From the NCBI RefSeq assembly GCF_006345805.1, contig NC_043005.1, positions 93,310,001 to 93,374,000 on the forward strand: a stretch of 64,000 nucleotides of DNA. Reading direction: 5' to 3'. Shown piece after piece: positions 33,901-60,648 of this stretch (the stretch's first letter is position 1; the number at the start of each line of letters is the position of its first letter). The translations under genes and the position numbers were made by a program. The DNA is from Octopus sinensis (Eukaryota). The notes below the pieces were generated by a model. The model saw only the letters and a program-made list of their open reading frames with translations. It made no database searches and was not told where the DNA came from.

Positions 33901-36900
33901 TTCATGAATAAGCAGAAGGGCTTGAATGTAAGCCAGAATATCCATGCTGTTTCATGAATAAGCAGAAGGGCTTGAACGTAAGCCAAGAATATACATGATG
34001 TTTCATGAATAAGCAAAAGGGCTGAAACGTAAGCCAAGAATATACATGATGTTTCATGAATAAGCAGAAGAGCTGAAACGTAAGCCAAGAATATACATGA
34101 TGTGTCATGAAGATGCAGAAGGGCTGAAACGTAAGCCAAGAATACATGATGTTTCATGAATAACCAGAAGGGCTGAAGCGTAAGCCAAGAATATACGTGA
34201 TGTTTCATGAAGAAGCAGAAGGGCTGAAACGTAAGCCAAGAATATACATGATGTTTCATGAATAAGCAGAAGGGCTGAAACGTACGCCAAGAATATACAT
34301 GATGTTTCATGAATAAGCAGAAGGGCTGAAACGTAAGCCAAGAATATCCATGATGTTTCATGATGAAGAAGCAAAGGGATGAAACGTAAGCCAAGAATAC
34401 ATGATGTTTCATGAAGAAGGAGGAGGATGAAACGTAAGCCAAGAATATACATGATGTTTCATGAAGAAGCAGAAGGGCTGAAACGTAAGCCAGAATATAC
34501 ATGATGTTCCATGAATAAGATGAAGGCTGAAACGTAAGCCAAGAATATACATGATGTTTCATGAAGAAGCAGAGGGCTGAAAACGTAAGCCAAGAATATA
34601 CATGATGTTTCATGAAGAAGCAGAAGGGCTGAAACGTAAGTCATGAATATACATGATGTTTCATGAATAAGCAGAAGGGCTGAAACGTAAGCGAAGAATA
34701 TACATGAAGTTTCATGAATAAGCAGAAGGGATAAAACGTAAGCCAAGAATATCCATGATGTTTCATGAAGAAGCAGAAGGGCTGAAACGTAAGCCAAGAA
34801 CATACATGATGTTTCATGAATAAGCAGAAGGGCTGAAGCGTAGGCCAAGAATATACATGATGTTTCATGAAGAAGCAGAAGGGATGAAACGTAAGCCGAG
34901 AATATCCATGATGTTTCATGAAGAAGCAGAAGGATGAAACGTAAGCCAAGAATATACATGATGTTTCATGAGAAGCAGGAGGGATGAAACGTAAGCCAAG
35001 AATATACATGATGTTTCATGAAGAAGCAGAAGGGCTGAACGTAAGCCAAGAATATACATGATGTTCCATGAATAAGCAGAAGGGCTGAACGTAGGCCAAG
35101 AATATACATGATGTTTCATGGAGAAGCAGGAGGGCTGAAACGTAAGCCAAGAATATACATGATGTTTCATGAAGAAGCAGAAGGGCTGAAACGTAAGTCA
35201 TGAATATACATGATGTTTCATGAATAAGCAGAAGGGCTGAAACGTAAGCGAAGAATATACATGAAGTTTCATGAATAAGCAGAAGGGATAAATCGTAAGC
35301 CAAGAATATCCATGATGTTTCATGAAGAAGCAGAAGGGCTGAAACGTAAGCCAAGAATATACATGACGTTTCATGGAGAAGCAGAAGGGCTGAAACGTAT
35401 GCCAAGAATATACATGATGTTTCATGAATAAGATGAAGGGCTGAAACGTAAGCCAAGAATATACATGATGTTTCATGAATAAGATGAAGGGCTGAAACGT
35501 AAGCCAAGAATATACATGATGTTTCATGAAGAAGCAGAAGGGCTGAAACGTAAGCCAAGAATATACATGATGTTCCATGAATAAGCAGAAGGGCTGAAAC
35601 GTAAGCCAAGAATATACATGATGTTTCATGAAGAAGCAGGAGGGCTGAAACGTAAGCCAAGAATATACATGATGTTTCATGAAGAAGCAGAAGGGCTGAA
35701 ACTTAAGTCATGAATATACATGATGTTTCATGAATAAGCAGAAGGGCTGAAACGTAAGCGAAGAATATACATGAAGTTTCATGAATAAGCAGAAGGGATA
35801 AAACGTAAGCCAAGAATATCCATGATGTTTCATGAAGAAGCAGAAGGGCTGAAACGTAAGCCAAGAATATACATGACGTTTCATGGAGAAGCAGAAGGGC
35901 TGAAACATATGCCAAGATGTTTCATGAATAAGATGAAGGGCTGAAACGTAAGCCAAGAATATACATGATGTTTCAGGAAGAAGCAGAAGGCCTGAAACGT
36001 AAGCCAAGATTATACATGAAACGTATGCCAAGATGTTTCATGAATAAGATGAAGGGCTGAAACGTAAGCCAAGAATATACATGATGTCCAGGAAGAAGCA
36101 GAAGGGCTGAAACGTAAGCCAAGAATATACATGACGTTTCGTGGAGAAGCAGAAGGGCTGAAACGTAAGCCAAGAATATACATGATCTTTCATAAAGAAG
36201 CAGAAGGGCTGAAACGTAAGCCAAGAATATCCATGATGTTTCAGGAAGAAGCAGAGGGGCTGAAACGTAAGCCAAGATTTTATATGATGTTTCATGAATA
36301 AGCAGAAGGGCTTGAATGTAAGCCAGGATATCCATGCTGTTTCATGAATAAGCAGAAGGGCTTGAACGTAAGCCAAGAATATACATGATGTTTCATGAAT
36401 AAGCAAAGGGCTGAAACGTAAGCCAAGAATATATATGATGTTTCATGAATAAGCAGAAGAGCTGAAACGTAAGCCAAGAATATACATGATGTGTCATGAA
36501 GATGCAGAAGGGCTGAAACGTAAGCCAAGAACATACATGATGTTTCATAAATAACCAGAAGGGCTGAAGCGTAAGCCAAGAATATACGTGATGTTTCATG
36601 AAGAAGCAGAAGGGATGAAACGTAAGCCAAGAATATACATGATGAGTCATGAATAAGCAGAAGGGCTGAAACGTAAGCCAAGAATATACATGACGTTTCA
36701 TGGAGAAGCAGAAGGGCTGAAACGTAAGCCAAGAATATACATGATCTTTCATGAAGAAGCAGAAGGGCTGAAACGTAGGCCAAGAATATCCATGATGTTT
36801 CAGGAAGAAGCAAAGGGGCTGAAACGTAAGCCAAGATTTTATATGATGTTTCATGAATAAGCAGAAGGGCTTGAATGTAAGCCAAGGATATCCATGCTGT

Positions 36901-39900
36901 TTCATGAATAAGCAGAAGGGCTTGAACGTCAGCCAAGAATATACATGATGTTTCATGAATAAGCAAAAGGGCTGAAACGTACGCCAAGAATATATATGAT
37001 GTTTCATGAATAAGCAGAAGAGCTGAAACGTAAGCCAAGAAATACATGATGTGTCATGAAGATGCAGAAGGGCTGAAACGTAAGCCAAGAATATACATGA
37101 TGTGTCATGAAGATGCAGAAGGGCTGAAACGTAAGCCAAGAATATACGTGATGATTCATGAAGAAGCAGAAGGGATGAAACGTGAGCCAAGAATATACAT
37201 GATGTTTCATGAATAAGCAGAAGGGCTGAAACGTAAGCCAAGAATATCCATGATGTTTCATAAAGAAGCAGAAGGGCTGAAACGTAAGCCAAGAATATCC
37301 ATGATGTTTCATGAATAAGCAGAAGGGATGAAACTTTAGCCAATTAAATACATGATGTGTCATGAAGAAGCAGAAGGGCTAAAACGTCACCCGAGAATGT
37401 CCATGATGTTTCATGAAGAAGCAGAAGGGATGGAACGTAAGCCAAGAATATACATGATGTTTCATGAAGAAGCAGAAGGGCTGAAACGTAAGCCAAGAAT
37501 ATACATGATGTTCCATGAATAAGCAGAAGGGCTGAAACGTAAGCCAAGAATATACATGATGTTTCATGAAGAAGCAGAAGGGCTGAAACGTAAGCCAAGA
37601 ATATACATGATGTTTCATGAATAAGATGAAGGGCTGAAACGTAAGCCAAGAATATACATGATGTTTCATGAAGAAGCAGAAGGGCTGAAACGTAAGCCAA
37701 GAATATACATGACGTTTCATGGAGAAGCAGAAGGGCTTAAACGTAAGCCAAGAATATACATGATGTTTCATGAAGAAGCAGAAGGGCTGAAACGTAAGCC
37801 AAGTATATACATGATGTTTCATGAATAAGATGAAGGGCTGAAACGTAAGCCAAGCATATACATGATGTTTCATGTAGAAGCAGAAGGGCTGAAACGTAAG
37901 TCATGAATATACATGATGTTTCATGAAGAAGCAGAAGGGCTGAAACGTAAGCCAAGAATATCCATGATGTTTCATGAAGAAACAGAAGGGCTGAAACGTT
38001 AGCCAAGAATTTATATGACGTTTCATGAATAAGCAGAAGGGCTTGAACGTAAGCCAAGAATATACATGATGTTTAGCAATCACCAGAAGGGCTCAAACGT
38101 AAGCCAAGAATATCCATGATGTTTCATGAATAACCAGAAGGGCTGAAACGTAAGCCAAGAATATCCATGATGTTTATAAATAAACAGAAGGGCTGAAACG
38201 TAAGCCAAGAATATACATGATGTTTCATGAAGAAGCAGAAGGGCTGAAGCGTAAGCCAAGAATATACGTGATGATTCATGAAGAAGCAGATGGGATGAAA
38301 CGTGAGCCAAGAATATCCATGATGTTTCATGAAGAAGCAGAAGGGCTGAAACGTAAGCCAAGAATATCCATGATGTTTCATGAAGAAGCAGAAGGGCTGA
38401 AACGTAAGCCAAGAATATCCATGATGTTTCATGAATAAGCAGAAGGGCTGAAACGTAAGCCAAGAATATACATGATGTTTCATGAAGAAGCAGAAGGGCT
38501 GAAACGTAAGCCAAGAATATACATAATGTTTCATAAATAAGCAGAAGGGCTGGAACGTAAGCCAAGAATATACATGATGTTTCATGAATAACCAGAAGGG
38601 CTGAAACGTAAGCCAAGAATATCCATGATGTTTCATGAAGAAGCAGAAGTGCTGAAACGTAAGCCAAGTATATCCATGATGTTTCATGAATAAGCAGAAG
38701 GGATGAAACGTTAGCCAATTAAATACATGATGTGTCATGAAGAAGCAGAAGGGCTAAAACGTCACCCGAGAATATCCATGATGTTTCATGAATAAGCAGA
38801 AGGGCTGAAACGTAAGCCAAGAATATACATGATGTTTCATGAATAAGATGAAGGGCTGAAACGTAAGCCAAGAATATACATGATGTTTCATGAAGAAGCA
38901 GAAGGGTGAAACGTAAGCCAAGAATATACATGACGTTTCATGGAGAAGCAGAAGGGCTTCAACGTAAGCCAAGTATATCCATGATGTTTCATGAAGAAGC
39001 AGAAGGGCTGAAACGTAAGCCAAGAATATACATGATGTTTCATGAATAAGCAGAAGGGCTTAAGCGTAAGCCAAGAATATACGTTATGTTTCATGAAGAA
39101 GCAGAAGGGATGAAACGTAAGCCAAGAATATCCATGATGTTTCATGAAGAAGCAGATGGGCTGAAACGTAAGCCTAGAAAATCCATGATGTTTCATGAAG
39201 AAGCAGAAGGGCTGAAACGTAAGCCAAGAATATCCATGATGTTTCATGTACAAGCAGAAGGGCTGAAACATAAGCCAAGAATATACATGATGTTTCATGA
39301 AGAAGCAGAAGGGCTGAAACGTAAGCCAAGAATATCCATGATGTTTATAAATAATCAGAAGGGGTGAAACGTAAGCCAAGAATATACATGATATTTCATG
39401 AATAAGCAGAAGGGCTGAAACGTAAGCCAAGATTATACATGATGTTTCATGAATAAGCACGATGGCTGAAAGGTAAGCCAAGCCTATCCATGATGTTTCT
39501 AAAAGAAGCAGAAGGGCTGAAACGTAAGCCAAGAATATCCATGATGTTTCATAAATAAGCAGAAGGGCTGGAACGTAAGCCAAGAATATACATGATGTTT
39601 CATGAATAAGCAGAAGGGCTGAAACGTGAGCCAAGAATATCCATGTTGTATCATGAATAAGCAGAAGGGATGAAACGTAAGCCAAGAATATACCTGATGT
39701 TTCATGAAGAAGCAGAAGGGCTGAAACGTAAGCCAAGAATATACATGATGTTTCATGAAGAAGCAGAAGGGCTGAAACGTAAGCCAAGAATATACATGAT
39801 GTTCCATGAATAAGCAGAACGGCTGAAACGTAAGCCAAGAAATACATGATGTTTCATGAATAAGCAGAAGGGCTGAAACGTAAGCCAAGTATATACATGA

Positions 39901-42900
39901 TGTTTCATAAATAAGATGAAGGGCTGAAACGTAACCCAAGAATATACATGATGTTTCATGAAGAAGAAGAAGGCCTTAAACTTAAGCCAAGAAAATACAT
40001 GACGTTTAATGGAGAAGCAGAAGGGCTGAAACATATGCCAAGAATATACATGATATTTCATGAAGAAGCAGAAGGGCTGAAACGTAAGCCAAGAATATAC
40101 ATGATGTTTCATGAATAAGCAGAAGGGCTTAAGCGTAAGCCAAGTATATACGTGATGTTTCATGAAGAAGCAGAAGGGCTGAAACGTAAGCCAAGAATAT
40201 ACATGATGTTCCATGAATAAGTAGAACGGCTGAAACGTAAGCCAAGAATATACATGATGTTTCATAAAGAAGCAGAAGGGCTGAAACGTAAGTCATGAAT
40301 ATACATGATGTTTCATGAAGAAGCAGAAGGGCTGAAACGTAAGCCAAGAATATACATGACATTTCATGGAGAAGCAGAAGGGCTGAAACGTAAGCCAAGA
40401 ATATATATGATGTTTCATGAATAAGATGAAGGGCTGAAACGTAAGCCACGAATATACATGATGTTTCAGGAAGAAGCAGAAGGGCTGAAACGTAAGCCAA
40501 GAATATACATGACGTTTCATGGAGAAGCAGAAGGGCTGAAACGTAAGCCAAGAATATACATGACGTTTCATGAAGAAGCAGATGGGCTGAAACGTAAGCC
40601 AAGAATATCCATGATGTTTCAGGAAGAAGCAGAGGGGCTGAAACGTAAGCCAAGATTTTATATGATGTTTCATGAATAAGCAGAAGGGCTTGAATGTAAG
40701 CCAAGGATATCCATGCTGTTTCATGAATAAGCAGAAGGGCTTGAACGTAAGCCAAGAATATACATGATGTTTCATGAATAAGCAAAAGGGCTGAAACGTA
40801 AGCCAAGAATATATATGATGTTTCATGAATAAGCAGAAGAGCTGAAACGTAAGCCAAGAATATACATGATGTGTCATGAAGATGCAGAAGGGCTGAAACG
40901 TAAGCCAAGAACATACATGACGTTTCATGAATAACCAGAAGGGCTGAAGCGTAAGCCAAGAATATACGTGATGTTTCATGAAGAAGCAGAAGGGCTGAAA
41001 CGTAAGCCAAGAATATACATGATGAGTCATGAATAAGCAGAAGGGCTGAAATGTAAGACAAGAATATACATGATGTTTCATGAATAAGCAGAAGGGCTGA
41101 AGCGTAAGCCAAGAATATACGTGATGTTTCATGAAGAAGCAGAAGGGATGAAACGTAAGCCAAGAATGTACACGATGTTTCATGAAGAAGCAGAAGGGCT
41201 GAAACGTAAGCCAAGAATATACATGATGTTTCATGAAGAAGCAGGAGGGCTGAAACGTAAGGAAAGAATATACATGATGTTTCATAAATAAGCAGAAGGG
41301 CTGGAACGTAAGCCAAAAATATACATGATGTTTCATGAATAAGCAGAAGGGCTGAAACGTAAGCCAAGAATATCCATGATGTTTCATGAAGAAGCAGAAG
41401 GGCTGAAACGTAAGCCAAGAATATCCATGATGTTTCATGAATAAGCGGAAGGGATGAAACGTTAGCCAATTAAATACATGATGTGTCATTAAGAAGCAGA
41501 AGGGCTAAAACGTCACCGAGAATGTCATGATGTTTCATGAAGAAGCAGAAGGGATGAAACTTAAGCCAAGAATATACATGATGTTTCATGAAGAAGCAGA
41601 AGGGCTGAAACGTAAGCCAAGAATATACATGATGTTCCATGAAGAAGCAGAAGGGCTGAAACGTAAGCCAAGAATATACATGATGTTTCATGAAGAAGCA
41701 GAAGGGCTGAAACGTAAGCCAAGAATATACATGATGTTTCATGAATAAGATGAAGGGCTGAAACGTAAGCCAAGAATATACATGATGTTTCATGAAGAAG
41801 CAGAGGGGCTGCAACGTAAGCCAAGAATATACATGACGTCTCATGGAGAAGCAGAAGGGCTTAAACGTAAGCCAAGAATATACATGAAGTTTCATGTAGA
41901 AGCAGAAGTGCTGAAACGTAAGTCATGAATATACATGATATTTCATGAAGAAGCAGAAGGGCTGAAACGTAAGCCAAGAATATCCATGATGTTTCATGAA
42001 GAAACAGAAGGGCTCAAACGTTAGCCAAGTATTTATATGACGTTTCATGAATAAGCAGAAGGGCTTGAACGTAAGCCAAGAATATACATGATGTTTAGAA
42101 ATCACCAGAAGGGCTCAAACGTAAGCCAAGAATATCCATGATGTTTCATGAATAACCAGAAAGGCTGAAACGTAAGCCAAGAATATCCATGATGTTTATA
42201 AATAACCAGAAGGGGTGAAACGTAAGCCAAGAATATACATGATGTTTCATGAAGAAGCAGAAGGGCTGAAACGTAAGCCAAGAATATACATGATGTTCCA
42301 TGAAGAAGCAGAAGGGCTGAAACGTAAGCCAAGAATATACATGATGTTTCATGAAGAAGCAGAAGGGCTGAAGCGTAGGCCAAGAATATACGTGATGATT
42401 CATGAAGAAGCAGAAGGGATGAAACGTGAGCCAAGAATATCCATGATGTTTCACGAAGAAGCAGAAGGGATGAAACGTAAGCCAAGAATATCCATGATGT
42501 TTCATGAAGAAGCAGAAGGGATGAAACGTAAGTCAAGAATATCCATGATGTTTCATGAAGAAGCAGAAGGGCTGAAACGTAAGCCTAGAAAATCCATAAT
42601 GTTTCATGAAGAAGCAGAAGGGCTGAAACGTAAGCCAAGAATATACATGATGTTTCATGAAGAAGCAGAAGGGCTGAAACATAAGCCAAGAATATACATG
42701 ATGTTTCATGAAGAAGCAAAAGGGCTGAAACGTAAGCCAAGAATATCCATGATGTTTCATGAATAAGCAGAAGGGCTGAAACGTAAGCCAAGAATATACA
42801 TGATGTTTCATGAAGAAGCAGAATGGCTGAAACGTAAGCCACGAATATACGTGATGTTTCATGAATAAGCACAAGGGCTGAAAGGTAAGCCAAGAATATC

Positions 42901-45900
42901 CATGATGTTTCATGAAGAAGCAGAAGGGCTGAAACGTAAGCCAAGAATATCCATAATGTTTCATAAATAAGCAGAAGGGCTGGAACGTAAGCCAAGAATA
43001 TACATGATGTTTCATGAATAAACAGAAGGGCTGAAACGTAAGCCAACAATATCCATGATGTTTCATGAAGAAGCAGAAGGGCTGAAACGTAAGCCAAGAA
43101 TATCCATGATGTTTCATGAATAAGCAGAAGGGATGAAACGTCAGCCAATTAAATACATGATGTGTCATGAAGAAGCAGAAGGGCTAACACGTCACCCGAG
43201 AATATCCATGATGTTTCATGAAGAAGCAGAAGGGCTGAAACGTAAGCCAAGAATATACATGATGTTTCATGAATAAGATGAAGGGCTGAAACGTAAGCCA
43301 AGAATATACATGATGTTTCATGAAGAAGCAGAAGGGGTGAAACGTAAGCCAAGAATATACATGACGTTTCATGGAGAAGCAGAAGGGCTTAAACGTAAGC
43401 CAAGAATATACATGATGTTTCATGAAGAAGCAGAAGGGCTGAAACGTAAGCCAAGAATATACATGATGTTTCATGAATAAGCAGAAGGGCTTATGCGTAA
43501 GCCAAGAATATACGTGATGTTTCATGAAGTAGCAGAAGGGATGAAACGTAAGTCAAGAATATCCATGATGTTTCATGAAGAAGCAGAAGGGCTGAAACGT
43601 AAGCCTAGAAAATCCATGATGTTTCATGAAGAAGCAGAAGGGCTGAAACGTAAGCCAAGAATATACATGATGTTTCATGAACAAGCAGAAGGGCTGAAAC
43701 ATAAGCCAAGAATATACATGATGTTTCATGAAGAAGCAAAAGGGCTGAAACGTAAGCCAAGAATATCCATGATGTTTATAAATAACCAGAAGGGGTGAAA
43801 CGTAAGCCAAGAATATACATGATGTTTCATGAATAAGCAGAAGGGCTGAAACGTAAGCCAAGAATATACATGATGTTTCATGAATAAGCACGAGGGCTGA
43901 AAGGTAAGCCAAGATTATCCATGATGTTTCTAAAAGAAGCAGAAGGGCTGAAACGTAAGCCAAGAATATCCATGATGTTTCATAAATAAGCAGAAGGGCT
44001 GGAACGTAAGCCAAGAATATACATGATGTTTCATGAATAAGCAGAAGGGCTGAAACGTAAGCCAAGAATATCCATGATGTGTCATGAAGAAGCAGAAGGG
44101 CTGAAACGTAAGCCAAGAATATCCATGTTGTTTCATGAATAAGCAGAAGGGATGAAACGTAAGCCAAGTATATACCTGATGTTTCATGAAGAAGCAGAAG
44201 GGCTGAAACGTAAGCCAAGAATATACATGATGTTTCATGAAGAAGCAGAAGGGCTGAAACGTAAGCCAAGTATATACATGATGTTTCATAAATAAGATGA
44301 AGGGCTGAAACGTAACCCAAGAATATACATGATGTTTCATGAAGAAGCAGAAGGCCTGAAACTTAAGCCAAGAAAATACATGACGTTTAATGGAGAAGCA
44401 GAAGGGCTGAAACGTATGCCAAGTATATACATGATATTTCATGAAGAAGCAGAAGGGCTGAAAAGTAAGCCAAGAATATACATGATGTTCCATGAATAAG
44501 TAGAACGGCTGAAACGTAAGCCAAGAATATACATGATGTTTCATGAAGAAGCAGAAGGGCTGAAACGTAAGTCATGAATATACATGATGTTTCATGAAGA
44601 AGCAGAAGGGCTGAAACGTAAGCCAAGAATATACATGACGTTTCATGGAGAAGCAGAAGGGCTGAAACGTAAGCCAAGAATATATATGATGTTTCATGAT
44701 GAAAGATGAAGGCTGAAACGTAAGCCAAGAATATACATGATGTTTCAGGAAGAAGCAGAAGGGCTGAAACGTAAGCCAAGAATATACATGACGTTTCATG
44801 GAGAAGCAGAAGGGCTGAAACGTAAGCCAAGAATATACATGATGTTTCATGAAGAAGCAGATGGGCTGAAACGTAAGCCAAGAATATCCATGATGTTTCA
44901 GGAAGAAGCAGAGGGGCTGAAACGTAAGCCAAGATTTTATATGATGTTTCATGAATAAGCAGAAGGGCTGAAGTAAGCCAAGAATATCCATGCTGTTGTT
45001 TCATGAATAAGCAGAAGGGCTTGAACGTAAGCCAAGAATATACAAATGTTTCATGAATAAGCAAAAGGGCTGAAACGTAAGCCAAGAATATATATGATGT
45101 TTCATGAATAAGCAGAAGAGCTGAAACGTAAGCCAAGAATATACATGATGTTTCATGAAGAAGCAGAAGGGCTGAAACGTAAGCCAAGAATATACATGAT
45201 GTTTCATGAATAAGCAGAAGGGCTGAAACGTAAGCCAAGAATATCCATGATGTTTCATGAAGAAACAGAAGGGCTCAAACGTTAGCCAAGTATTTATATG
45301 ACGTTTCATGAATAAGCAGAAGGGCTTGAACGTAAGCCAAGAATATACATGATGTTTAGAAATCACCAGAAGGGCTCAAACGTAAGCCAAGAATATCCAT
45401 GATGTTTCATGAATAACCAGAAAGGCTGAAACGTAAGCCAAGAATATCCATGATGTTTATAAATAACCAGAAGGGGTGAAACGTAAGCCAAGAATATACA
45501 TGATGTTTCATGAAGAAGCAGAAGGGCTGAAACGTAAGCCAAGAATATACATGATGTTCCATGAAGAAGCAGAAGGGCTGAAACGTAAGCCAAGAATATA
45601 CATGATGTTTCATGAAGAAGCAGAAGGGCTGAAGCGTAGGCCAAGAATATACGTGATGATTCATGAAGAAGCAGAAGGGATGAAACGTGAGCCAAGAATA
45701 TCCATGATGTTTCACGAAGAAGCAGAAGGGATGAAACGTAAGCCAAGAATATCCATGATGTTTCATGAAGAAGCAGAAGGGCTGAAACGTAAGCCAAGAA
45801 TATCCATGATGTTTCATGAATAAGCAGAAGGGCTGAAACGTAAGCCAAGAATATACATGATGTTTCATGAAGAAGCAGAATGGCTGAAACGTAAGCCACG

Positions 45901-48900
45901 AATATACGTGATGTTTCATGAATAAGCACAAGGGCTGAAAGGTAAGCCAAGAATATCCATGATGTTTCATGAAGAAGCAGAAGGGCTGAAACGTAAGCCA
46001 AGAATATCCATAATGTTTCATAAATAAGCAGAAGGGCTGGAACGTAAGCCAAGAATATACATGATGTTTCATGAATAAACAGAAGGGCTGAAACGTAAGC
46101 CAACAATATCCATGATGTTTCATGAAGAAGCAGAAGGGCTGAAACGTAAGCCAAGAATATCCATGATGTTTCATGAATAAGCAGAAGGGCTGAAACGTAA
46201 GCCAAGAAATACATGATGTGTCATGAAGAAGCAGAAGGGCTAACACGTAAGCCAGAGAATATCCATGATGTTTCATGAAGAAGCAGAAGGGCTGAAACGT
46301 AAGCCAAGAATATACATGATGTTTCATGAATAAGATGAAGGGCTGAAACGTAAGCCAAGAATATACATGATGTTTCATGAAGAAGCAGAAGGGGTGAAAC
46401 GTAAGCCAAGAATATACATGACGTTTCTGGATAAAGAAGCAGAAGGGCTTAAACGTAAGCCAAGAATATACATGATGTTTCATGAAGAAGCAGAAGGGCT
46501 GAAACGTAAGCCAAGAATATACATGATGTTTCATGAATAAGCAGAAGGGCTTATGCGTAAGCCAAGAATATACGTGATGTTTCATGAAGTAGCAGAAGGG
46601 ATGAAACGTAAGTCAAGAATATCCATGATGTTTCATGAAGAAGCAGAAGGGCTGAAACGTAAGCCTAGAAAATCCATGATGTTTCATGAAGAAGCAGAAG
46701 GGCTGAAACGTAAGCCAAGAATACATGATGTTTCATGTATGAACAAGCAGAAGGGCTGAAACATAAGCCAAGAATATACATGATGTTTCATGAAGAAGCA
46801 AAGGGCTGAAACGTAAGCCAAGAATATCCATGATGTTTATAAATAACCAGAAGGGGTGAAACGTAAGCCAAGAATATACATGATGTTTCATGAATAAGCA
46901 GAAGGGCTGAAACGTAAGCCAAGAATATACATGATGTTTCATGAATAAGCACGAGGGCTGAAAGGTAAGCCAAGATTATCCATGATGTTTCAAAGAAGCA
47001 GAAGGGCTGAAACGTAAGCCAAGAATATCCATGATGTTTCATAAATAAGCAGAAGGCTGGAACGTAACCAAGAATATACATGATGTTTCATGAATAAGCA
47101 GAAGGGCTGAAACGTAAGCCAAGAATATCCATGATGTTTCATGAAGAAGCAGAGGGCTGAAACGTAAGCCAAGAATATCCATGTTGTTTCATGAATAAGC
47201 AGAAGGGATGAAACGTAAGCCAAGTAATATACTGATGTTTCATGAAGAAGCAGAAGGGCTGAAACGTAAGCCAAGAATATACATGATGTTTCATGAAGAA
47301 GCAGAAGGGCTGAAACGTAAGCCAAGTATATACATGATGTTTCATGAATAAGAGAAGGGCTGAAACGTAACCAAGATATACATGATGTTTCATGAAGAAG
47401 CAGAAGGCCTGAAACTTAAGCCAAGAAAATACATCGTTTTATGAAGAAGCAGAAGGGCTGAAACGTATGCCAAGTATATACATGATATTTCATGAAGAAG
47501 CAGAAGGGCTGAAAAGTAAGCCAAGAATATACATGATGTTCCATGAATAAGTAGAACGGCTGAAACGTAAGCCAAGAATATACATGATGTTTCATGAAGA
47601 AGCAGAAGGGCTGAAACGTAAGTCATGAATATACATGATGTTTCATGAAGAAGCAGAAGGGCTGAAACGTAAGCCAAGAATATACATGACGTTTCATGGA
47701 GAAGCAGAAGGGCTGAAACGTAAGCCAAGAATATATATGATGTTTCATGAATAAGATGAAGGGCTGAAACGTAAGCCAAGAATATACATGATGTTTCAGG
47801 AAGAAGCAGAAGGGCTGAAACGTAAGCCAAGAATATACATGACGTTTCATGGAGAAGCAGAAGGGCTGAAACGTAAGCCAAGAATATACATGATGTTTCA
47901 TGAAGAAGCAGATGGGCTGAAACGTAAGCCAAGAATATCCATGATGTTTCAGGAAGAAGCAGAGGGGCTGAAACGTAAGCCAAGATTTTATATGATGTTT
48001 CATGAATAAGCAGAAGGGCTTGAATGTAAGCCAAGGATATCCATGCTGTTTCATGAATAAGCAGAAGGCTTGAACGTAAGCCAAGAATATACATGATGTT
48101 TCATAATAAGCAAAAGGGCTGAAACGTAAGCCAAGAATATATATGATGTTTCATGAATAAGCAGAAGAGCTGAAACGTAAGCCAAGATATACATGATGTG
48201 TCATGAAGATGCAGAGAGGGCTGAAACGTAAGCCAGAATATACATGATGTTTCATGAATAACCAGAAGGGCTGAAGCGTAAGCCAAGAATATACGTGATG
48301 TTTCATGAAGAAGCAGAAGGGCTGAAACGTAAGCCAAGAATATACATGATGAGTCATGAATAAGCAGAAGGGCTGAAACGTAAGACAAGAATATACATGA
48401 TGTTTCATGAATAAGCAGAAGGGCTGAAGCGTAAGCCAAGAATATACGTGATGTTTCATGAAGAAGCAGAAGGGATGAAACGTAAGCCAAGAATGTACAC
48501 GATGTTTCATGAAGAAGCAGAAGGGCTGAAACGTAAGCCAAGAATATACATGATGTTCCATGAATAAACAGACGGGCTGAAACGTAAGCCAAGAATATAC
48601 ATGATGTTTCATGGAGAAGCAGGAGGGCTGAAACGTAAGCCAAGAATATACATGATGTTTCATAAATAAGCAGAAGGGCTGGAACGTAAGCCAAAAATAT
48701 ACATGATGTTTCATGAATAAGCAGAAGGGCTGAAACGTAAGCCAAGAATATCCATGATGTTTCATGAAGAAGCAGAAGGGCTGAAACGTAAGCCAAGAAT
48801 ATCCATGATGTTTCATGAATAAGCGGAAGGGATGAAACGTTAGCCAATTAAATACATGATGTGTCATTAAGAAGCAGAAGGGCTAAAACGTCACCCGAGA

Positions 48901-51900
48901 ATGTCCATGATGTTTCATGAAGAAGCAGAAGGGATGAAACTTAAGCCAAGAATATACATGATGTTTCATGAAGAAGCAGAAGGGCTGAAACGTAAGCCAA
49001 GAATATACATGATGTTCCATGATGAAGCAGAAGGGCTGAAACGTAAGCCAAGAATATACATGATGTTTCATGAAGAAGCAGAAGGGCTGAAACGTAAGCC
49101 AAGAATATACATGTTTTCATGAATAAATGAAGGGCTGAAACGTAAGCCAAGAATATACATGATGTTTCATGAAGAAGCAGAAGGGCTGCAACGTAAGCCA
49201 AGAATATACATGACGTCTCATGGAGAAGCAGAAGGGCTTAAACGTAAGCCAAGAATATACATGAAGTTTCATGTAGAAGCAGAAGGCTGAAACGTAAGTC
49301 ATGATATACATGATATTTCATGAAGAAGCAGAAGGGCTGAAACGTAAGCAAGAATATCCATGATGTTTCATGAAGAAACAGAAGGGCTGAAACGTTAGCC
49401 AAGAATTTATATGACGTTTCATGAATAAGCAGAAGGGCTTGAACGTAAGCCAAGAATATACATGATATTTAGAAATCACCAGAAGGGCTCAAACGTAAGC
49501 CAAGAATATCCATGATGTTTCATGAATAACCAGAAAGGCTGAAACGTAAGCCAAGAATATCCATGATGTTTATAAATAACCAGAAGGGGTGAAACGTAAG
49601 CCAAGAATATACATGATGTTTCATGAAGAAGCAGAAGGGCTGAAACGTAAGTCATGAATATACATGATGTTTCATGAAGAAGCAGAAGGCTGAAACGTAA
49701 GCCAAGAATATACATGATGTTTCATGGAGAAGCAGAAGGGCTGAAACGTACCAAGAATATATATGATGTTTCATGAATAGAAGAGAAGGGCTGAACGTAA
49801 GCCAAGAATATACATGATGTTTCATGAAGAAGCAGAAGGGCTGAAACGTAAGCCAAGAATATACATGACGTTTCATGAGAAGCAGAAGGGCTGAACGTAA
49901 GCCAAGAATATACATGATGTTTCATGAATAAGCAGAAGGGCTGAAACGTAAGCCAAGAATATACATGATGTTTCATGAGAAGCAGAAGGGCTGAAACGTA
50001 AGCCAAGATATACATGATGTTTCATGAAAAAGCAGAAGGGCTGAAACGTAAGCCAAGAATATACATGATGTTTCATGAAGAAGCAGAGGGCTGAAACGTA
50101 AGCCAAGAATATACATGATGTTTCATAAATAAGCAGAAGGGCTGGAACGTAAGCCAAAATATACATGATGTTTCATGAATAAGCAAGGGCTGAAACGTAA
50201 GCCAAGAATATCCATGATGTTTCATGAAGAAGCAGAAGGGCTGAAACGTAAGCCAAGATATCCATGATGTTTCATGAATAAGCAGAAGGGATGAAACGTA
50301 GCCAATTAATACATGATGTGTCATGAAGAAGCAGAAGGGCAAAACGTCACCCGAGAATGTCCATGATGTTCATGAAGAAGCAGAAGGGCTGAAACGTAAG
50401 CAAGAATATACATGATGTTTCATGAAGAAGGCAGAAGGGCTGAAACGTAGCCAAGAATATACATGATGTTCCATGAAGAAGCAGAAGGGCTGAAACTAAG
50501 CCAAGAATATCCATGATGTTTCATGAAGAAGCAGAAGGGCTGAAACGTAAGCCAAGAATATACATGATGTTTCATGAATAAGAGAAGGGCTGAAACGTAA
50601 GCCAAGAATATACATGATGTTTCATGAAGAAGCAGAAGGGCTGAAACGTAAGCCAAGAATATACATGATGTTTCATGAGAAGCAGAGGGCTGAAACGTAA
50701 GCCAAGAATATACTGATGTTTCATGAAGAAGCAGAAGGGCTGAAACGTAAGCCAAGAATATACATGATGTTTCATGAAAAGCAGAAGGGCTGAAACGTAA
50801 GCCAAGAATATACATGATGTTTCATGAAGAAGCAGAAGGGCTGAACGTTAGCCAAGAATATCATGATGTTTCATGAATAAGCAGAAGGGCTGAAACGTAG
50901 CCAGAATATACATGATGTTTGTTGAATACCAGAAGGGCTGAAACGTACCAAGAATATACATGATGTTTCATGAATAAGCAGAAGGCTGAAACGTAAGCAG
51001 AATATACATGATGTTTCATGAATAAGCAGAAGGGCTGAAACGTAAGCCAGATATACATGATGTTTCATGAAAAGCAGAAGGGCTGAAACGTAAGCCAAGA
51101 ATATACATGATGTTCATGAGACAGAAGGGCTGAAACGTAAGCCAAGAATATACATGATGTTTCATGAAGCAGAAGGGCTGAAACGTAAGCCAAAATATAC
51201 ATGATGTTTCATGAAGAAGCAGAGGGCTGAAACGTAAGCCAAGAATATCCATGATGTTTCATGAAGAAGCAGAAGGGCTGAAACGTAAGCCAAGAATATA
51301 CATGATGTTTCATGAAGAAGCAGAAGGGCTGAAACGTAAGCCAAGAATATCCATGATGTTTCATGAATAAGCAGAAGGGCTGAAACGTAAGCCAAGAATA
51401 TACATGATGTTTCATGAAGAAGCAGAATGGCTGAAACGTAAGCCAAGAATATACATGATGTTTCATGAATAAGCAGAAGGGCTGAAACGTAAGCCAAGAA
51501 TATACATGTTGTTTCATGAAGAAGCAGAAGGGCTGAAACGTAAGCCAAGAATATACATGATGTTTCATAATAAGCAGAAGGGCTGAAACGTAAGCCAAGA
51601 ATATACATGATGTTTCATGAAGAAACAGAAGGGCTGAACGTAAGCCAAGAATATACATGATGTTTCATGAAGAAGCAGAAGGGCTGAAACGTAAGCCAAG
51701 ATATACATGAATGTTTCATGAATAAGCAGAAGGGCTGAACGTAAGCCAAGTAATATACATGATTTTCATGAAGGCAAAGAGGCTAAAACGTAAGCCAAGA
51801 ATATCCATGATGTTTCATGAAGAAGCAGAAGGGCTGAAACGTAAGCCAAGATATACATGATGTTTCATGAATAAGATGAAGGGCTGAAACGTAAGCCAAG

Positions 51901-54900
51901 AATATACATGATGTTTCCAAGATCATAGAAGGCAGAAGGGGTGAAACGTAAGCCAAGAATATCCATGATGTTTCATGAAGAAGCAGAAGGGCTGAAACGT
52001 AAGCCAGAAATACATGATTTTCTGAAGAAGCAGAAGGGCTGAAACGTAAGCCAAGAATACATGATGTTTCATGAATAAGCAGAAGGGCTGAAACGTAAGC
52101 CAAGAATATACATGATGTTCATGATGAAGCAGAAGGGATGAAACGTAAGCCAAAAATATACATGATGTTTCATGAATAGCAGAAGGGCTGAAACGTAAGC
52201 CAAAAATATACATGATGTTTCATGAAGAAGCAGAAGGGCTCAAACGTAAGCCAAGAATATACATGACGTTTCATGGAGAAGCAGAAGGGCTTAAACGTAA
52301 GCCAAGAATATACATGATGTTTCATGAAGAAGCAGAAGGGCTGAAACGTAAGCCAAGAATATACATGATGTTTCATGAATAAGCAGAAGGGCTGAAGCGT
52401 AAGCCGAGAATATACGTGATGTTTCATGAAGAAGCAGAAGGGATGAAACGTAAGCCAAGAATATCCATGATGTTTCATGAATAAGCAGAAGGGCTGAAAC
52501 GTAAGCCAAGAAAATCCATGATGTTTCATGAAGAAGCAGAAGGGCTGAAACGTAAGCCAAGAACATACATGATGTTTCATGAATAAGCACAAGGGCTGAA
52601 AGGTAAGCCAAGACTATCCATGATGTTTCTAGAAGAAGCAGAAGGGCTGAAACGTAAGCCAAGAATATCCATGATGTTTCATAAATAAGCAGAAGGGCTG
52701 GAACCTAAGCCAAGAATATCCATGATGTGTCATGAAGAAGCAGAAGGGCTGACACGTCAGCCAAGAATATCCATGTTGTTTCATGAATAAGCAGAAGGGA
52801 TGAAACGTAAGCCAAGAATATACCTGATGTTTCATGGAGAAGCAGAAGGGCTGAAACGTCAGCCAAGAATATCCATGATGTTTCATGAAGAAGCAGAAGG
52901 GCTGAAACGTAACCCAGGAATATACATGATGTTTCATGAATAACCAGAAGGGCTGAAACATAAGCCAAGAATATACATGATGTTTCATGAATAAGCAGAA
53001 GGGCTGAAACGTAAGCCTAGAATATACATGATGTTTCATGAATAAGCAGAAGGGCTGAAATGTAAGCCAAGAATATACATGATGTTTCATGAATAGGCAG
53101 AACGGCTGAAACGTAAGTCAAGAATATTTATGATGTTTCATGAATAAGATGAGGGGCCGAAACTTAAGCCAAGAATATACATGATGTGTCATGTATAACC
53201 AGAAGGGCTGAAACGTAAGCCAAGAATATACATGACGTATCATGAATAAGCAGAAGGGCTGAAACGTAAGTCAAGAATATTCATGATGTTTCATGAAGAA
53301 GCAGAAGGGCTGAACCCTAAGCCAAGAATATACATGATGTTTCATGAATAAGCAGAAGGGCTGAAACATAAGCCTAGATTGTACATGATGTCTCATGAAT
53401 AAGCAGAAGGGATAAAACGTAAGCCAAGAATATACATGATGTTTCATGAAGAAGCAGAAGGGCTGAAACATAAGCCAAGAATATACATGATGTTTCATGA
53501 ATAGGCCGAACGGCTGAAACGTAAGTCAAGAATATACATGATGTTTCATGAATAAGCAGAAGGGCTGAAACATAAGCCAAGAATATACATGATGTCTCAT
53601 GAATAAGCAGAAGGGCTGAAACATAAGCCAAGAATATACCTGATGTTTCATGAATAAGCAGAAGGGCTGAAACATAAGCCAAGAATATACATGATGTTTC
53701 ATGAAGAAGCAGAAGGGCTGAAACGTAAGCCAAGAATATACATGATGTTTCATGAATAGGCAGAAGGGCTGAAACATAAGCCAAGTATATACATGATGTT
53801 TCATGAAGAAGCAGAAGGGCTGAACCCTAAGCCAAGAATATACATGATGTTTCATGAATAAGCAGAAGGGCTGAAACATAAGCCTAGAATGTACATGATG
53901 TCTCATGAATAAGCAGAAGGGATAACACGTAAGCCAAGAATATACATGATGTTTCATGAAGAAGCAGAAGGGCTGAAACATAAGCCAAGAATATACATGA
54001 TGTTTCATGAAGAAGCAGAAGGGCTGAAACGTAAGCCAAGAATATACATGATGTTTCATGAATAGGCAGAACGGCTGAAACGTAAGTCAAGTATATACAT
54101 GATGTTTCATGAATAAGCAGAAGGGCTGAAACATAAACCAAGAATATACATGATGTTTCATGAATAAGCAGAAGGGCTGAAACATAAGCCTAGAATGTAC
54201 ATGATGTCTCATGAATAAGCACGAGGGCTGAAACGTAAGCCAAGAATATCCATGATGTTTCATGAATAACGAGAAGGGCTGAAACGTAAGCCAAGAATAT
54301 CCATGATGTTTCATGAAGAAGCAGAAGGGCTGAAACGTAAGCCAAGAATATACATGATGTTTCATGAATAAGCAGAAGGGCTGAAACATAAGCCTAGAAT
54401 GTACATGATGTCTCATGAATAAGCACGAGGGATAAAACGTAAGCCAAGAATATCCATGATGTTTCATGAATAACCAGAAGGGCTGAAACGTAAGCCAAGA
54501 ATATCCATGATGTTTCATGAAGAAGCAGAAGGGCTGAAACGTAAGCCAAGAATATACATGATGTTTCATGAATAGGCAGAACGGCTGAAATGTAAGTCAA
54601 GAATATACATGATGTTTCATGAATAAGCAGAAGGGCTGAAACATAAGCCAAGAATATACATGATGTCTCATGAATAAGCAGAAGGGCTGAAACATAAGCC
54701 AAGAATATACATGATGTTTCATGAATAAGCAGAAGGGCTGAAACATAAGCCAAGAATATACATGAAGTTTCATGAATAAGATGAAGGGCTGAAACATAAG
54801 CCAAGAATATACATGATGTTTCATGAATAAGCAGAAGGGCTGAAACATAAGCCAAGAATATACATGATGTTTCATGAATAAGCAGAAGGGCTGAAACATA

Positions 54901-56596
54901 AGCCAAGAATATACATGATGTTTCATGAATAAGATGAAGGGCTGAAACATAAGCCAAGTATATACATGATGTTTCATGAATAAGCAGAAGGGCTGAAACA
55001 TAAGCCAAGAATATACATGATGTTTCATGATTAAGCAGAAGGGCTGAAACTAAGCCAAGAATAACATGATGTTTCATGAATAAGAGAAGGGCTGAAACAT
55101 AAGCCAAGAATATACATGATGTTTCATGAATAAGCAGAAGGGCTGAAACATAAGCCAAGAATATACATGATGTTTCATGAATAAGCAGAAGGGCTGAAAC
55201 ATAAGCCAAGAATATACATGATGTTTCATGAATAAGATGAAGGGCTGAAACATAAGCCAAGAATATACATGATGTTTCATGAATAAGCAGAAGGGCTGAA
55301 ACATAAGCCAAGAATATACATGATGTTTCATGAATAAGATGAAGGGCTGAAACATAAGCCAAGAATATACATGATGTTTCATGAATAAGCAGAAGGGCTG
55401 AAACATAAGCCAAGAATATACATGATGTTTCATGAATAGCAGAAGGGCTGAAACGTAAGTCATATATACATGATGTTCATGAATAAGCAGAAGGGCTGAA
55501 ACATAGCCAAGAATATACATGATGTTTCATGAATAAGCAGAGGGCTGAAACATAAGCCAGAATATACATGATGTTTCATGAATAAGCAGAAGGCTGAAAC
55601 ATTCCATGAATAAGCACGAGGGATAAAACGTAAGCCAAGAATATCCATGATGTTTCATGAATAACCAGAAGGGCTGAAACGTAAGCCAAGAATGTCTCAT
55701 GAATAAGCACGAGGGATAAAACGTAAGCCAAGAATATCCATGATGTTTCATGAATAACCAGAAGGGCTGAAACGTAAGCCAAGAATATCCATGATGTTTC
55801 ATGAAGAAGCAGAAGGGCTGAAACGTAAGCCAAGAATATACATGATGTTTCATGAAGTAGCAGAAGGGCTGAAACGTAAGCCAAGAATATCCATGATGTT
55901 TCATGTATAACCAGAAGGGCTGAAACGTAAGCCAAGAATATACATGATGTTTCATGAAGAAGCAGAAGGGCTGAAACGTAAGCCTAGAATGTACATGATG
56001 TCTCATGAATAAGCACGAGGGATAAAACGTAAGCCAAGAATATCCATGATGTTTCATGAATAACCAGAATGGCTGAAACGTAAGCCAAGAATATCCATGA
56101 TGTTTCATGAAGAAGCAGAAGGGCTGAAACGTAAGCCAAGAATATACATGATGTTTCATGAAGTAGCAGAAGGGCTGAAACGTAAGCCAAGAATATCCAT
56201 GATGTTTCATGTATAACCAGAAGGGCTGAAACGTAAGCCAAGAATATACATGATGTTTCATGTAGAAGCAGAAGGGCTGAAACGTAAGCCAAGAATATCC
56301 ATGATGTTTCATGAAGAAGCAGAAGGGCTGAAACGTAAGCCAAGAATATACATGATGTTTCATGAAGTAGCAGAAGGGCTGAAACGTAAGCCAAGAATAT
56401 CCATGATGTTTCATGTATAACCAGAAGGGCTGAAACGTAAGCCAAGAATATACATGATGTTTCATGAAGAAGCAGAAGGGCTGAAACGTAAGCCAAGAAT
56501 ATCCATGATATTTCATGAAGAAGCAGAAGGGCTGAAACGTAAGCCAAGAATATACATGATGTTTCATGAATAAGATGAAGGGCTGAAACGTAAGCC
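9947..56596. repeat. 51-bp tandem satellite, ~915 monomers, with higher-order repeats
   Basis: Consensus TTCATGAA[G/T]AAGCAGAAGGGCTGAAACGTAAGCCAAGAATATACATGATGT repeated head-to-tail in one orientation; no inserted element was seen; 17-aa periodicity in the ORF track. Confidence 0.99.
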
Positions 56597-56692
56597 CTTT
56601 CTAAATGGGTAATGTAACTTTGAATTTAGGTCGAAGGTAATATCTAGGAAATTAACTATCTTAGTTTTAGTTTCATATGTACTGCCTAGAAA
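56597..56692 (-). pseudogene. Penelope-like reverse transcriptase fragment (inverted)
   Basis: Minus strand encodes TKTKIVNFLDITFDLNSKLHYPFRK, matching the PLE RT C-terminal pattern VNFLDxTxDL..Y.P(Y/F)RK; recognised from family knowledge. Confidence 0.7.
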
Positions 56693-56696
56693 TTTC

Positions 56697-56965
56697 AATA
56701 ATAATAATAATAATGGTAATATTAAATATATTATCAATAATGATGATAGCAACAACAACAACAATAATAATAATGATAATAATAATAATAATAATAACAA
56801 CGTTGATATAAATAATGATAATAACAATACCAATAATACAGATAGTATAAGTAAAATTATGGTAGGTGGGAATGATGGTGAAGATGGATTGATAAATAGT
56901 AACCCTAATTTAGATATCAACATGATCACTAATAATGAAAATAATACTAATAATAATTTTAATAT
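56697..56965 (+). repeat. (AAT)n/(AAC)n/(GAT)n tract, probably an Asn-rich linker
   Basis: Trinucleotide repeats directly upstream of the Cys motif. Confidence 0.8.
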
Positions 56966-57028
56966 CAGTAATGTTCGGGAACTATCCTTAAATAATTCCA
57001 AAACTGAATACTATCCCCCGCCCCCCGT

Positions 57029-57452
57029 TGTAATTGTAGGATTAGATCAAAATGTCCGGTATCTGGTCGTTGTTCGGTCCAAAACGTAACTTAAAAAATG
57101 CACGATAATAACTTCTAACATTAGCTTTCTTTATTTCGGATGTTCGGTGGATTTAAAAAAACGTCTTAACAATCATTTTTCCTCTTTTAGACTAAAACAT
57201 AAGGCAGGTTGCACAACACTATCTAGCAAAATTTGGGAACTAAAAACAAATAATATAGGATTCAACCTAAAATGGGATATAGTTAGAAGGGCGAAACCTT
57301 ATAGAAATTATAGGGAAGGTTGCCAACTTTGTTCTATGGAAACTTATGAAATTTTGAAACATCAGAGTAATATAAATCTGTTGAATAATCGTCTGGAGTT
57401 GGGACAATCTTGCATACATTCCACAACTCGAACGTTTAAATACTTTAAATGA
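57029..57452 (+). pseudogene. Penelope GIY-YIG endonuclease domain, disrupted
   Basis: CNCRIRSKCPVSGRCSVQNVT from 57029, stop/frameshift in the A-run at ~57093-57098, then KCTII..FLYFGCSVDLKKRLNNHFSSFR..LSSKIWELK..KWDIV..AKPY..CQLC..E..LLNNR.EL..SCIH. Confidence 0.82.
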
Positions 57453-57762
57453 AAATTATGAGTATTCCTATATTTTTCAAATTTTAACTTTTTATTATAA
57501 TAATAATAAGAAATATACTATACTAGCCTTCAACTTAACTTTCATAGAGGACTAAAAATCTTCACTGTAAACTTGAAATTGAATTTTTTTGTAAATCTAA
57601 TCTAGTCTTAAAGTTAATAAAGCTATCCCCCAATTATAAAATACTATGCCTTCTCATAAGTGATAGTTTTTTCCCTACTCTTTGTAAAGGAGATTAATGA
57701 CCTTTTGACACTGACCTAGTTTCTTCTCACCAAATAGCAGTAATTGGCATCTTGTTAGTGGC

Positions 57763-57875
57763 AACTTGAATTCCTTTTATGGTATTCTGAAACTTCCCTT
57801 ACCCTCATTCCTACAACTAACTTGAATTCCTTTTATGATATTCTGTAACCTCCCTTACCCTCATTCATGCAACTA
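57763..57875. repeat. 56-bp tandem duplication (2 copies) in the PLE 3' UTR
   Basis: AACTTGAATTCCTTTTATG[G/A]TATTCTG[A/T]AAC[T/C]TCCCTTACCCTCATTC.. starts at 57763 and 57819. Confidence 0.92.
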
Positions 57876-58059
57876 AAAAAATCTTTTATTACTTCTAATT
57901 CTTGTAGCAGTTAAACACAACCATAGTTTGGTCAGTTAGTGGGTGGACTTCACAACCTAATGTTCTTAAAATTTAAATCTACATCTTTATCTGTATATCT
58001 ACCTTCTCTAAAATGTTACTACTTGATTTGGAAGCTTTTGTATTACTGGAAAACCTATA

Positions 58060-58152
58060 TAATTGGCTGAAGAGCACTCAACATCTTAAATCTGCTGTAA
58101 TACTTACAACTTTTAATAGAATGTTGTAGTGTGAAACAAATGTACCAAATTA
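58060..58152 (+). ncRNA. type I hammerhead ribozyme (Penelope-associated)
   Basis: Helix I TAATTGG/CCAA(A)TTA; core CTGAAGA (58067-73); helix II GCACTCAACAT/ATGTTG(T)AGTGT; GAAA (58133-36); helix III AC-AAAT-GT; cleavage triplet GUA (58142-44). Confidence 0.82.
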
Positions 58153-58184
58153 CCGGAGTCATTCTTGTTGCTTATATATATATA

Positions 58185-58578
58185 CTAGCAGTATCGCCCG
58201 GCGTTGCTCGGGTTGTAAGGGAAATAACTATATAAGCATTTTTAGAGAGTTATAGCCAAAAAATTGCAAAAAAATGCATTAAAAATTGAAAAAAAATTAA
58301 GGTAAATTTTTTTTTAAATCGTTGACACATCGTAGATATTTTTAGAGAGTTACTTCCCTTATATAAAAGCGGAAAAAATGCATTAAAATGGAAAAAATAT
58401 GATGGTAATTTTTTTTAAAATCGTAGACTCATCGTAGACGCGCTAATATTCAGACGGGCTCGATATGAATCACGACTATAAGATACCCGCTTTTGGTTAA
58501 ACTGCACCGCAAAATGTGGGAGTAGTTACGAATCTAAATCAAAGGGGACAGACACACAACTTCACTCTTATATAAAGA
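58185..58578 (-). mobile_element. non-autonomous Helitron, family A
   Basis: On the minus strand: A|TC 5' end, 3' GC-rich hairpin CCCGAGCAACGCCGGG about 10 nt before CTAG|T; homologous to 60649-61284. Confidence 0.85.
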
Positions 58579-58594: not shown

Positions 58595-59359
58595 TCATAG
58601 AGTTAGATTTATGAAGGTCTTCAGTAGAAAATCCTTCGAATTCTGACTCGCTGCTTGATATAATGAAATTCGTATCCATTTTTTGTCAGAATTACAAATT
58701 TTGAAAACACAATAGGAACAAATTTCGGAAAAAAATCTCCCATAATTCACGGAATTAAAATTACACTTCGATTTTTGTACAAAACTGTATTTGAAGTGTT
58801 TACGAAGTATAATACGTGTTTTCACGAATGTACTAAAGAGATTTACTCTGATATTCTCATTTAAATATGAATAGGTAAATTCGGGCGGTTTGGTAACGAA
58901 AGGGTTTATATAAGTGTCGTCTGTTTATACATAAACACTGTTTCATACTTTCAGTTTAGTCTTCCTCAAATCACTCTGTCGCTAATTTACTCTCTTCCAA
59001 GAACATTTTCACTCACTCTTATCTGTTAGCTTCCCATACATTTTACTCATGTATCTATCAGCGTGATAGACAGAAACAAATATTACATCTAGTTTCACTT
59101 TATTCGTTGTACACTGTGTGTGTGCGTTTGCGTGTGGTGTAAACCAGACTAAGAAAAGCATTTGACATACACACCAGAATGTGAGTTTTCTGTAAATTTT
59201 GCTTAATTGGAGTTTAAATTTTAAAAACTGGACCTGGCATGACGCGATGCATTGTACTCTTAAAAATGCTAGGTAAATTGTAATTGAAGAAATCCTATAT
59301 TGTAGATTTCTATAACTCCCAAAGGGAGGCAGATAAAATCTGCCTTTTATAATAAGAGA
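58595..59359 (-). mobile_element. putative Helitron-like repeat, family B (5' part); left arm of an inverted repeat
   Basis: Begins A|TCTCTTATTATAAAAG in a (TA)n site; near-identical inverted copy at 59423-59855. No CTRR 3' end seen; the left boundary is a guess (homology to the right arm reaches ~58945). Confidence 0.55.
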
Positions 59360-59422
59360 TATATATATATCTCTTATTATAAAAGGCAGATAGACAGACA
59401 GATAGACAGATATATATATATA

Positions 59423-59855
59423 TCTCTTATTATAAAAGGCAGATTTTATCTGCCTCCCTTTGGGAGTTATAGAAATCTACAATATAGGATTTCTTCAATT
59501 ACAATTTACCTAGCATTTTTAAGAGTACAATGCATCGCGTCATGCCAGGTCCAGTTTTTAAAATTTAAACTCCAATTAAGCAAAATTTACAGAAAACTCA
59601 CATTCTGGTGTGTGTGTCAAATGCTTTTCTTAGTCTGGTTTACACCACACGCAAACGCACACACACAGTGTGCAACGAATAAAATGAAAGTAAATAGCGA
59701 CAGAGTGATTTGAGGAAGACTAAACTGAAAGTATTCTGTCTATGACGCTGATAGATACATGAGTAAAATGTATGGGAAGCTAAGAGCTAAGAGTGAGTGA
59801 AAATGTTCTTGGAAGAGAGTAAATAGCGAGAGAGAGAGTGATTTGAGGAAGACTT
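59423..59855 (+). mobile_element. family B copy; right arm of the inverted repeat, distal part rearranged
   Basis: 59423-59690 is the near-perfect reverse complement of ~59095-59359; further blocks match 58945-59075, with one block duplicated. Confidence 0.65.
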
Positions 59856-60630: not shown

Positions 60631-60648
60631 ACTGCTGCGCTATGTATA

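Follow-up and report, generated by a model that had tools for sequence, protein, structure and literature searches.

Penelope-like elements (PLEs) of the Hydra clade, the C-terminal EN+ group, have been described as carrying a C-terminal GIY-YIG endonuclease, a CxCX5C motif in the linker, CxxC and CxH motifs and a hammerhead in the tail, as targeting (TA)n runs, and as showing 5' truncation together with an inverted adjacent copy (Craig et al. 2021, PMC8557442). In the minimal hammerheads of metazoan PLEs, helix III is replaced by a palindromic ACGU (Cervera and de la Pena 2014, PMC4209133). Tandem hammerhead repeats derived from PLEs are also known (PMC7229834; 10.64898/2026.07.22.740005), with reported retrozyme units of 51-972 bp in arrays of up to 300 units (10.64898/2026.07.22.740005), and they have been proposed to arise from PLE termini that subsequently undergo local amplification (10.64898/2026.07.22.740005; PMC7229834). 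For L1 elements, inversions at the 5' end have been attributed to twin priming, and both inversion points lie within 20 bp of each other in 46% of the reported cases (PMC12016303).

Here we describe a locus of Octopus sinensis at which a 51-bp satellite with hammerhead-like monomers directly adjoins a rearranged PLE. The analysed DNA, hereafter the window, is the whole stretch of 64,000 nucleotides at positions 93,310,001 to 93,374,000 of NC_043005.1 (scaffold C9). The PLE family represented in it shares each of the Hydra-clade features listed above, from the C-terminal GIY-YIG domain to the 5' truncation with an inverted copy, and differs from the published description (PMC8557442) in a long Asn-rich insert in the linker and a long stem II in the hammerhead, while the window copy itself deviates further, its inverted arm lacking the 3' terminus and abutting a satellite. 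The satellite resembles non-LTR retrozymes in its tandem hammerhead-like units, the length of 51 bp being that of the shortest unit in the retrozyme account (10.64898/2026.07.22.740005). Unlike the retrozymes described there, it has no complete hammerhead, one locus, no dispersed monomers and no homology to the adjacent PLE, and its approximately 1,230 assembled units are four times the maximum of 300 given in that account.

The satellite array and the PLE beside it

The features of the locus are as follows, with positions given in the window and R numbers referring to a natural reference copy of the PLE family.

9947..56596, plus strand: 51-bp satellite array of ~917 monomers, mean pairwise monomer distance 9.4%
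56546..56596, plus strand: last 51-bp unit, ending at the junction; 18 further units of the window array and 10 of a second segment have exactly its sequence
56566..56592, plus strand: hammerhead-like stretch of the last monomer (ATGAATA core variant, GAAAC, GTA), with stem II broken in this variant
56597..56689, minus strand: inverted 93-bp piece of the C-terminal region of the PLE reverse transcriptase (RT), R1428-1521, 87-92% identical to family copies
56690..56696, no strand: 7-nt filler at the inversion point
56697..57028, plus strand: start of the sense arm, Asn-rich (AAT)n linker, which in intact copies begins ~770 nt downstream of the inverted piece
57029..57055, plus strand: CxCX5C linker motif (as described in PMC8557442), here CNCRIRSKC, out of frame with the endonuclease through a frameshift
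57090..57452, plus strand: remnant of the C-terminal GIY-YIG endonuclease with CxxC and CxH motifs
58063..58148, plus strand: PLE type I hammerhead motif from a motif scan (CTGAAGA core, long stem II, 4-bp stem I)
58149..58175, plus strand: PLE 3' terminus
58173..58184, no strand: (TA)6 run, the usual target of the PLE family
58185..58578, minus strand: Helitron-like insertion right of the PLE

The window array comprises 917.7 copies of the 51-bp unit and is bounded on its left by an assembly gap (N100 at 9847-9946), so that its contig begins within satellite. A second segment of 16 kb (C9 93,292,673-93,308,679; loci L089 and L073) lies 11 kb to the left in the same orientation. When two 25-nt monomer patterns were run against the whole assembly with at most three mismatches, they gave 1102 and 1117 matches, none on the reverse strand; 1101 of the former and all of the latter fell inside the two C9 segments, and neither pattern found dispersed monomers or dimers elsewhere in the assembly. 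The left edge of the second segment is formed by a degenerate unit, with changes at 8 of 35 positions, that abuts non-PLE sequence, while its right end passes into garbled sequence with traces of the monomer, followed by 11 kb of other DNA and then the gap; the garbled stretch is possibly a mis-join or an old degenerate edge. No PLE family copy of at least 300 bp was found in the 204 kb examined around the locus besides the one in the window, and no satellite was found for 57 kb to the right of that copy. Weak higher-order periods of 25, 35 and 60 monomers were seen in the left and middle parts of the window array, and short local periods near its right end. A search of the literature, of incomplete coverage, found no paper on the 51-bp satellite.

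The array terminates at 56596 as ...GAAACGTAAGCC, 4 nt past the GTA, and continues without a spacer into the inverted RT piece. This fusion had been reported in the preliminary description and is borne out at 56596/56597 of the assembly, which is the sole source for the join. The same applies to the arrangement given there of a sense-strand linker, GIY-YIG domain and hammerhead tail head-to-head with the inverted piece, these parts having been located within a sense portion spanning 56697-58175, with the 7-nt filler as an addition; the earlier reading of a PLE, truncated and inverted, that borders the array also holds. Compared with their nearest neighbours, the last 17 full-length units show three differing positions in total. 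The join itself carries no significant signature: its 1-nt microhomology (C) does not exceed chance, and 8% of 5000 simulated joins form a hairpin as good as the 7-nt one that spans it, at which value snap-back (hairpin-primed) joining, a candidate prompted by a predicted fold, was dropped. No target duplication was seen by eye around the PLE.

Public runs were consulted through Logan contigs for 7 of the 24 runs listed (X1-X4 at 90%; X1, X6, X8 and X9 at 96%). No listed piece spans 56596/56597, and the RT bases private to the window (56633G; 56672-56689) are likewise absent from these contigs, which drop rare variants; across 56600-56623, the listed family-type pieces account for the whole depth in each of the four runs of the second set, so that no bridging piece is hidden there. 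Given the missing private bases, the lack of a spanning piece speaks neither for nor against the join. Exact satellite pieces of 31-51 nt occur in public contigs of runs under four organism labels, which are possibly synonyms, and none of the 24 listed public runs with the sequence is an RNA run. In X1 and X2 the summed contig depth of the monomer (56546-56596) is ~300 times that of the RT piece (56602-56657), a ratio that is not a copy number and that weakly hints at an array much larger in the genome than in the assembly.

The window PLE has 18 private substitutions in 1315 columns (1.4%) when compared with 19 loci and 2.0% when compared with the closest six, and its nearest relative is 94% identical; the inverted piece has private changes at 5 of 93 positions, its closest subfamily being possibly under-sampled. 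Its endonuclease matches PF01541 (E=0.00085; 20 bits, under the curated cut-off of 22.6). The hammerhead in its tail is a predicted ribozyme, called from the motif scan and from compensatory substitutions that family copies show in both stem II and stem III; its minimum free energy fold is no better than that of shuffles, and Rfam, searched at the gathering score or E<=10, recognised a hammerhead neither in the PLE tail nor in the monomer. The 3' UTR contains a 56-bp tandem duplication (57763-57874).

The family is dispersed, with 3591 candidates in the genome (best 93% among 40 scored), and its intact copies run in the order RT, Asn-rich linker, CNCRIRSKC, GIY-YIG, CQLC...CIH. In the translation, the CxxC and CxH of CQLC...E...N...CIH flank a conserved E and N, and CCHH was judged by eye to be absent. 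Regarding RWK and DKT, the motifs of the N-terminal RT part in the Hydra clade, one decayed copy has RWI and a frameshifted xKT, and the homologues P0008 and P0011 have RWK and DKT. There are 22 long homologues, of which the best-named is labelled Argonauta hians, and both of those inspected share the layout of RT followed by endonuclease. Searches of Pfam and PDB with the RT gave no naming match, the best being a group II maturase (E=0.38). A TA/AT run stands next to 14 of 21 family 3' ends, with a longer tail in the remaining seven. Judged by its linker and endonuclease motifs, tail hammerhead and (TA)n ends, the PLE is likely a Hydra-clade family with an Asn-rich linker. Nine loci (L053, L054, L057, L058, L059, L061, L063, L064 and L065; two pairs among them overlap other fetched loci) start at a common internal point, R1100-1102, which suggests either a subfamily of shorter elements or truncation at a fixed site.

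Other repeats were noted in the window. The Helitron-like insertion, which we take to be such from its CTAG end with a GC hairpin and its A|T site, has a relative on the opposite strand at ~60640-61280. A near-perfect palindrome occupies 59087-59695, with 288-nt arms that are 98% complementary and 33 nt apart. On the far side of the array, an RT remnant, presumably LINE-like, was seen by eye at 7000-8390, ending in (ATGT)n. A minimal hammerhead-like motif on the minus strand (9230-9270), 600 bp left of the gap, is unrelated to the monomer.

A proposed secondary fusion and its rivals

The course of events that we favour, and to which we give about an even chance, is a secondary fusion in which a deletion brought a satellite that was already present up against the innermost 93 bp of an inverted arm, that of a PLE inserted earlier. 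The satellite would have expanded independently by local tandem amplification, and the PLE would have inserted at the (TA)n run to the right of this older array as a two-armed copy (arms of ~2.3 kb and 1.5 kb), its two arms forming an inverted repeat of 1.5 kb. Long inverted repeats are prone to deletion, and a single deletion could have taken ~2.2 kb of the left arm, the hammerhead and TA flank of that arm, any intervening DNA and the old right edge of the array, after which end joining would have sealed the gap at the 1-nt microhomology.

Support comes from the other two-armed copies, of which nine were present among the family loci fetched (L002, L008, L020, L063, L072 and L168-L171, with a duplicate inside L169 entered once). 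In eight of them the inverted arm extends to the 3' terminus (R3664-3740), in L170 after an interruption of 3.1 kb; in the complex L171 one arm stops internally. The inverted arm in the window stops at R1521, ~2.2 kb short of that terminus, and a later deletion is favoured because full inverted arms are the rule elsewhere. The count is to be read with the sampling in mind, as most family loci were retrieved with queries that included the 3' part, which favours complete arms, and in L008 and L063 the arms, with a likeness to the reference of only ~75%, are possibly separate insertions; the locus in its undeleted state did not turn up. A two-armed precursor, its arms back-to-back and both reaching the 3' terminus as in the family copies, also fits the PLE structure described in PMC8557442.

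Several properties of the locus point the same way. The 3' end of the PLE lies in (TA)n, as do 14 of 21 family ends, with no satellite beyond it; the far edge of the array is degenerate (8/35), whereas 28 other units share the exact sequence of the junction unit; and the monomer scores at shuffle level against the PLE family at a locus that is interstitial, 16.3 Mb from the end of the 109,703,381-bp scaffold. This position also disposes of the earlier thought that the element might be attached to a chromosome end and, together with the GIY-YIG domain, rules out a telomere-associated (EN-minus) PLE. That the satellite is the older partner is favoured by its mean distance of 9.4% against 1.4-2.0% private changes in the PLE, a rough comparison, as homogenisation and assembly errors both shift monomer distances.

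Somewhat unlikely, in our estimate, is a primary insertion at the array edge, in which first-strand synthesis started from (TA)n and the satellite end primed a second, inverted cDNA within the RT region in a twin-priming-like manner, with loss of any intervening target DNA. The order of flank, inverted upstream piece and sense 3' part is the geometry of L1 5' inversions by twin priming (PMC12016303), which involve an enzyme of a different class, and a GCC(C) match of 3-4 nt is found in the PLE family sequence 3 nt from the join. The unbroken last monomer agrees with the low divergence of the PLE, and is indeed also expected under this course, with 0.7-1.5 changes expected and a 22-49% chance of none. 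However, the inverted arm of eight of the nine two-armed copies starts at the 3' terminus and not internally, no target duplication was evident, and the gap between the arms is ~770 nt, whereas the points lie at most 20 bp apart in 46% of L1 inversions, a figure that also means that gaps are not rare (PMC12016303).

A misassembly, in which a satellite read was chimerically joined to a palindromic PLE locus, we regard as unlikely. The contig does open inside satellite at a gap, the second array segment ends in garbled sequence, and tandem and inverted PLE structures are described as troublesome for assemblies (PMC8557442). Against this, the sequence is clean on either side of the join, with 97% of 13-mers common to the array, and the contig runs on gap-free for at least 57 kb to the right, being scaffolded in the same orientation 11 kb from the only other satellite segment; such proximity would be a coincidence if the join were chimeric, except where scaffolding had relied on the repeat.

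Finally, the suggestion of the preliminary description that reverse transcription of the window PLE, through template switching or reiterative copying, gave rise to the array we consider scarcely credible: the two directly adjoin, the hammerhead-like motif of the monomer exceeds chance and PLE termini are reported to yield tandem retrozymes (10.64898/2026.07.22.740005), but the monomer resembles neither the whole element (score reached by 152 of 200 shuffles) nor the PLE hammerhead tails (149 of 1000), the array meets the RT region and not the hammerhead tail, no monomers are dispersed (1117/1117 and 1101/1102 matches in the two segments), the degenerate left edge has no PLE family copy, and divergence within the array exceeds that of the PLE copy.

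A hammerhead-like monomer

The monomer contains TGAAGA or TGAATA, a 3-bp stem, GAAA, a palindromic ACGT and GTA, and thereby matches the minimal PLE hammerheads in the UGANNA core, the GAAA, the ACGU palindrome in place of helix III and the GUA triplet; it differs from them in having A at position 3, no stem I, and a 3-bp stem II closed by A-U and not by G10.1-C11.1 (PMC4209133). Among 20,000 dinucleotide shuffles, 173 gave the core, stem II, GAAA and UH, and 7 added the palindrome, by criteria that were set after the monomer had been seen. In the array, 356 motifs with a palindromic helix III were found, of which 340 have a stem I of 0 bp, and no monomer reaches 4 bp or more. A Watson-Crick 3-8 pair is present in 145 of them, none with a stem I of at least 3 bp, and no complete type I hammerhead was found in two or more consecutive units among the 356. 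The monomer is therefore hammerhead-like above chance, and is predicted to be inactive on account of the A at position 3 and the lack of a stem I. Of the earlier characterization of the monomer as hammerhead-like beside a hammerhead-bearing element, the motif stands, while stem I is lacking and the best resemblance is to another repeat family rather than to the neighbouring PLE.

The commonest polymorphism in the array is at monomer position 26 (G in 426 and T in 327 of 763 units), which corresponds to hammerhead position 8. A T there would pair with the A at position 3, and an A3-U8 pair may keep some hammerhead activity, though neither variant has a stem I; that the polymorphism falls on position 8 is a post hoc observation with a chance of about 1 in 150.

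The other family, likewise a dispersed repeat, carries a minimal hammerhead that is intact; it comprises 2273 candidates and was found by means of a pattern derived from the monomer. Its copies (L105 1500-1532, at C16:5212038, and L108-L167) are short, with a 4-bp stem I, a 4-bp stem II and the ACGT palindrome. The monomer aligns to it in register, and the best two among four alignments have 30-31 matches over 39-40 columns. Against 10 copies, none of 1000 dinucleotide shuffles and 40 of 1000 core-fixed shuffles did as well as the monomer, and one of 6000 random genomic windows scored as high. Because the repeat was found with a monomer-derived pattern, the core-fixed value (p=0.04) is the only fair one. 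Stem II is not conserved between the two, and the 15 nt outside the motif do not align.

A parent ORF for the second repeat was not found within 1.5 kb in 47/60 loci that kept the motif. An intact ancestor with the monomer's own stem II was sought with two patterns, and none was found outside the array except L077 and L105; the other four non-array matches are without a hammerhead core or at the control count. Derivation of the monomer from the SINE-like tail at ~60240, the hammerhead at 9266, that of L077 or the left flank was rejected, with scores of 15-21 against a background mean of 15.

From these comparisons it is plausible that the monomer descends from some minimal hammerhead. More specifically, and with a probability that we place a little short of even, it may be the fossil minimal hammerhead of another mobile repeat, the 2273-copy family being the best match, that lost its function through the gain of one A and the loss of another and then multiplied, at one locus, to ~1,230 units or more. 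On this reading, the change from G8 to U8 (327 of 763 units) would restore the Watson-Crick 3-8 pair.

Significance for PLEs and satellites

The junction is an ordinary boundary between a satellite and a retroelement in a repeat-rich animal genome, and provides no evidence that the reverse transcriptase of a PLE builds satellite arrays. What it adds to the PLEs is a family, likely of the Hydra clade, in which the linker is rich in Asn and two-armed insertions are regular. The monomer, in turn, may record the route from a PLE-type hammerhead to a large homogenised satellite that was proposed for short arrays by Li et al. 2026, and if so, this route would extend to a far larger, single-locus array with a dead ribozyme. 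Should the fossil reading prove true, the array would represent a ribozyme-born, protein-free satellite outside the retrozyme life cycle.
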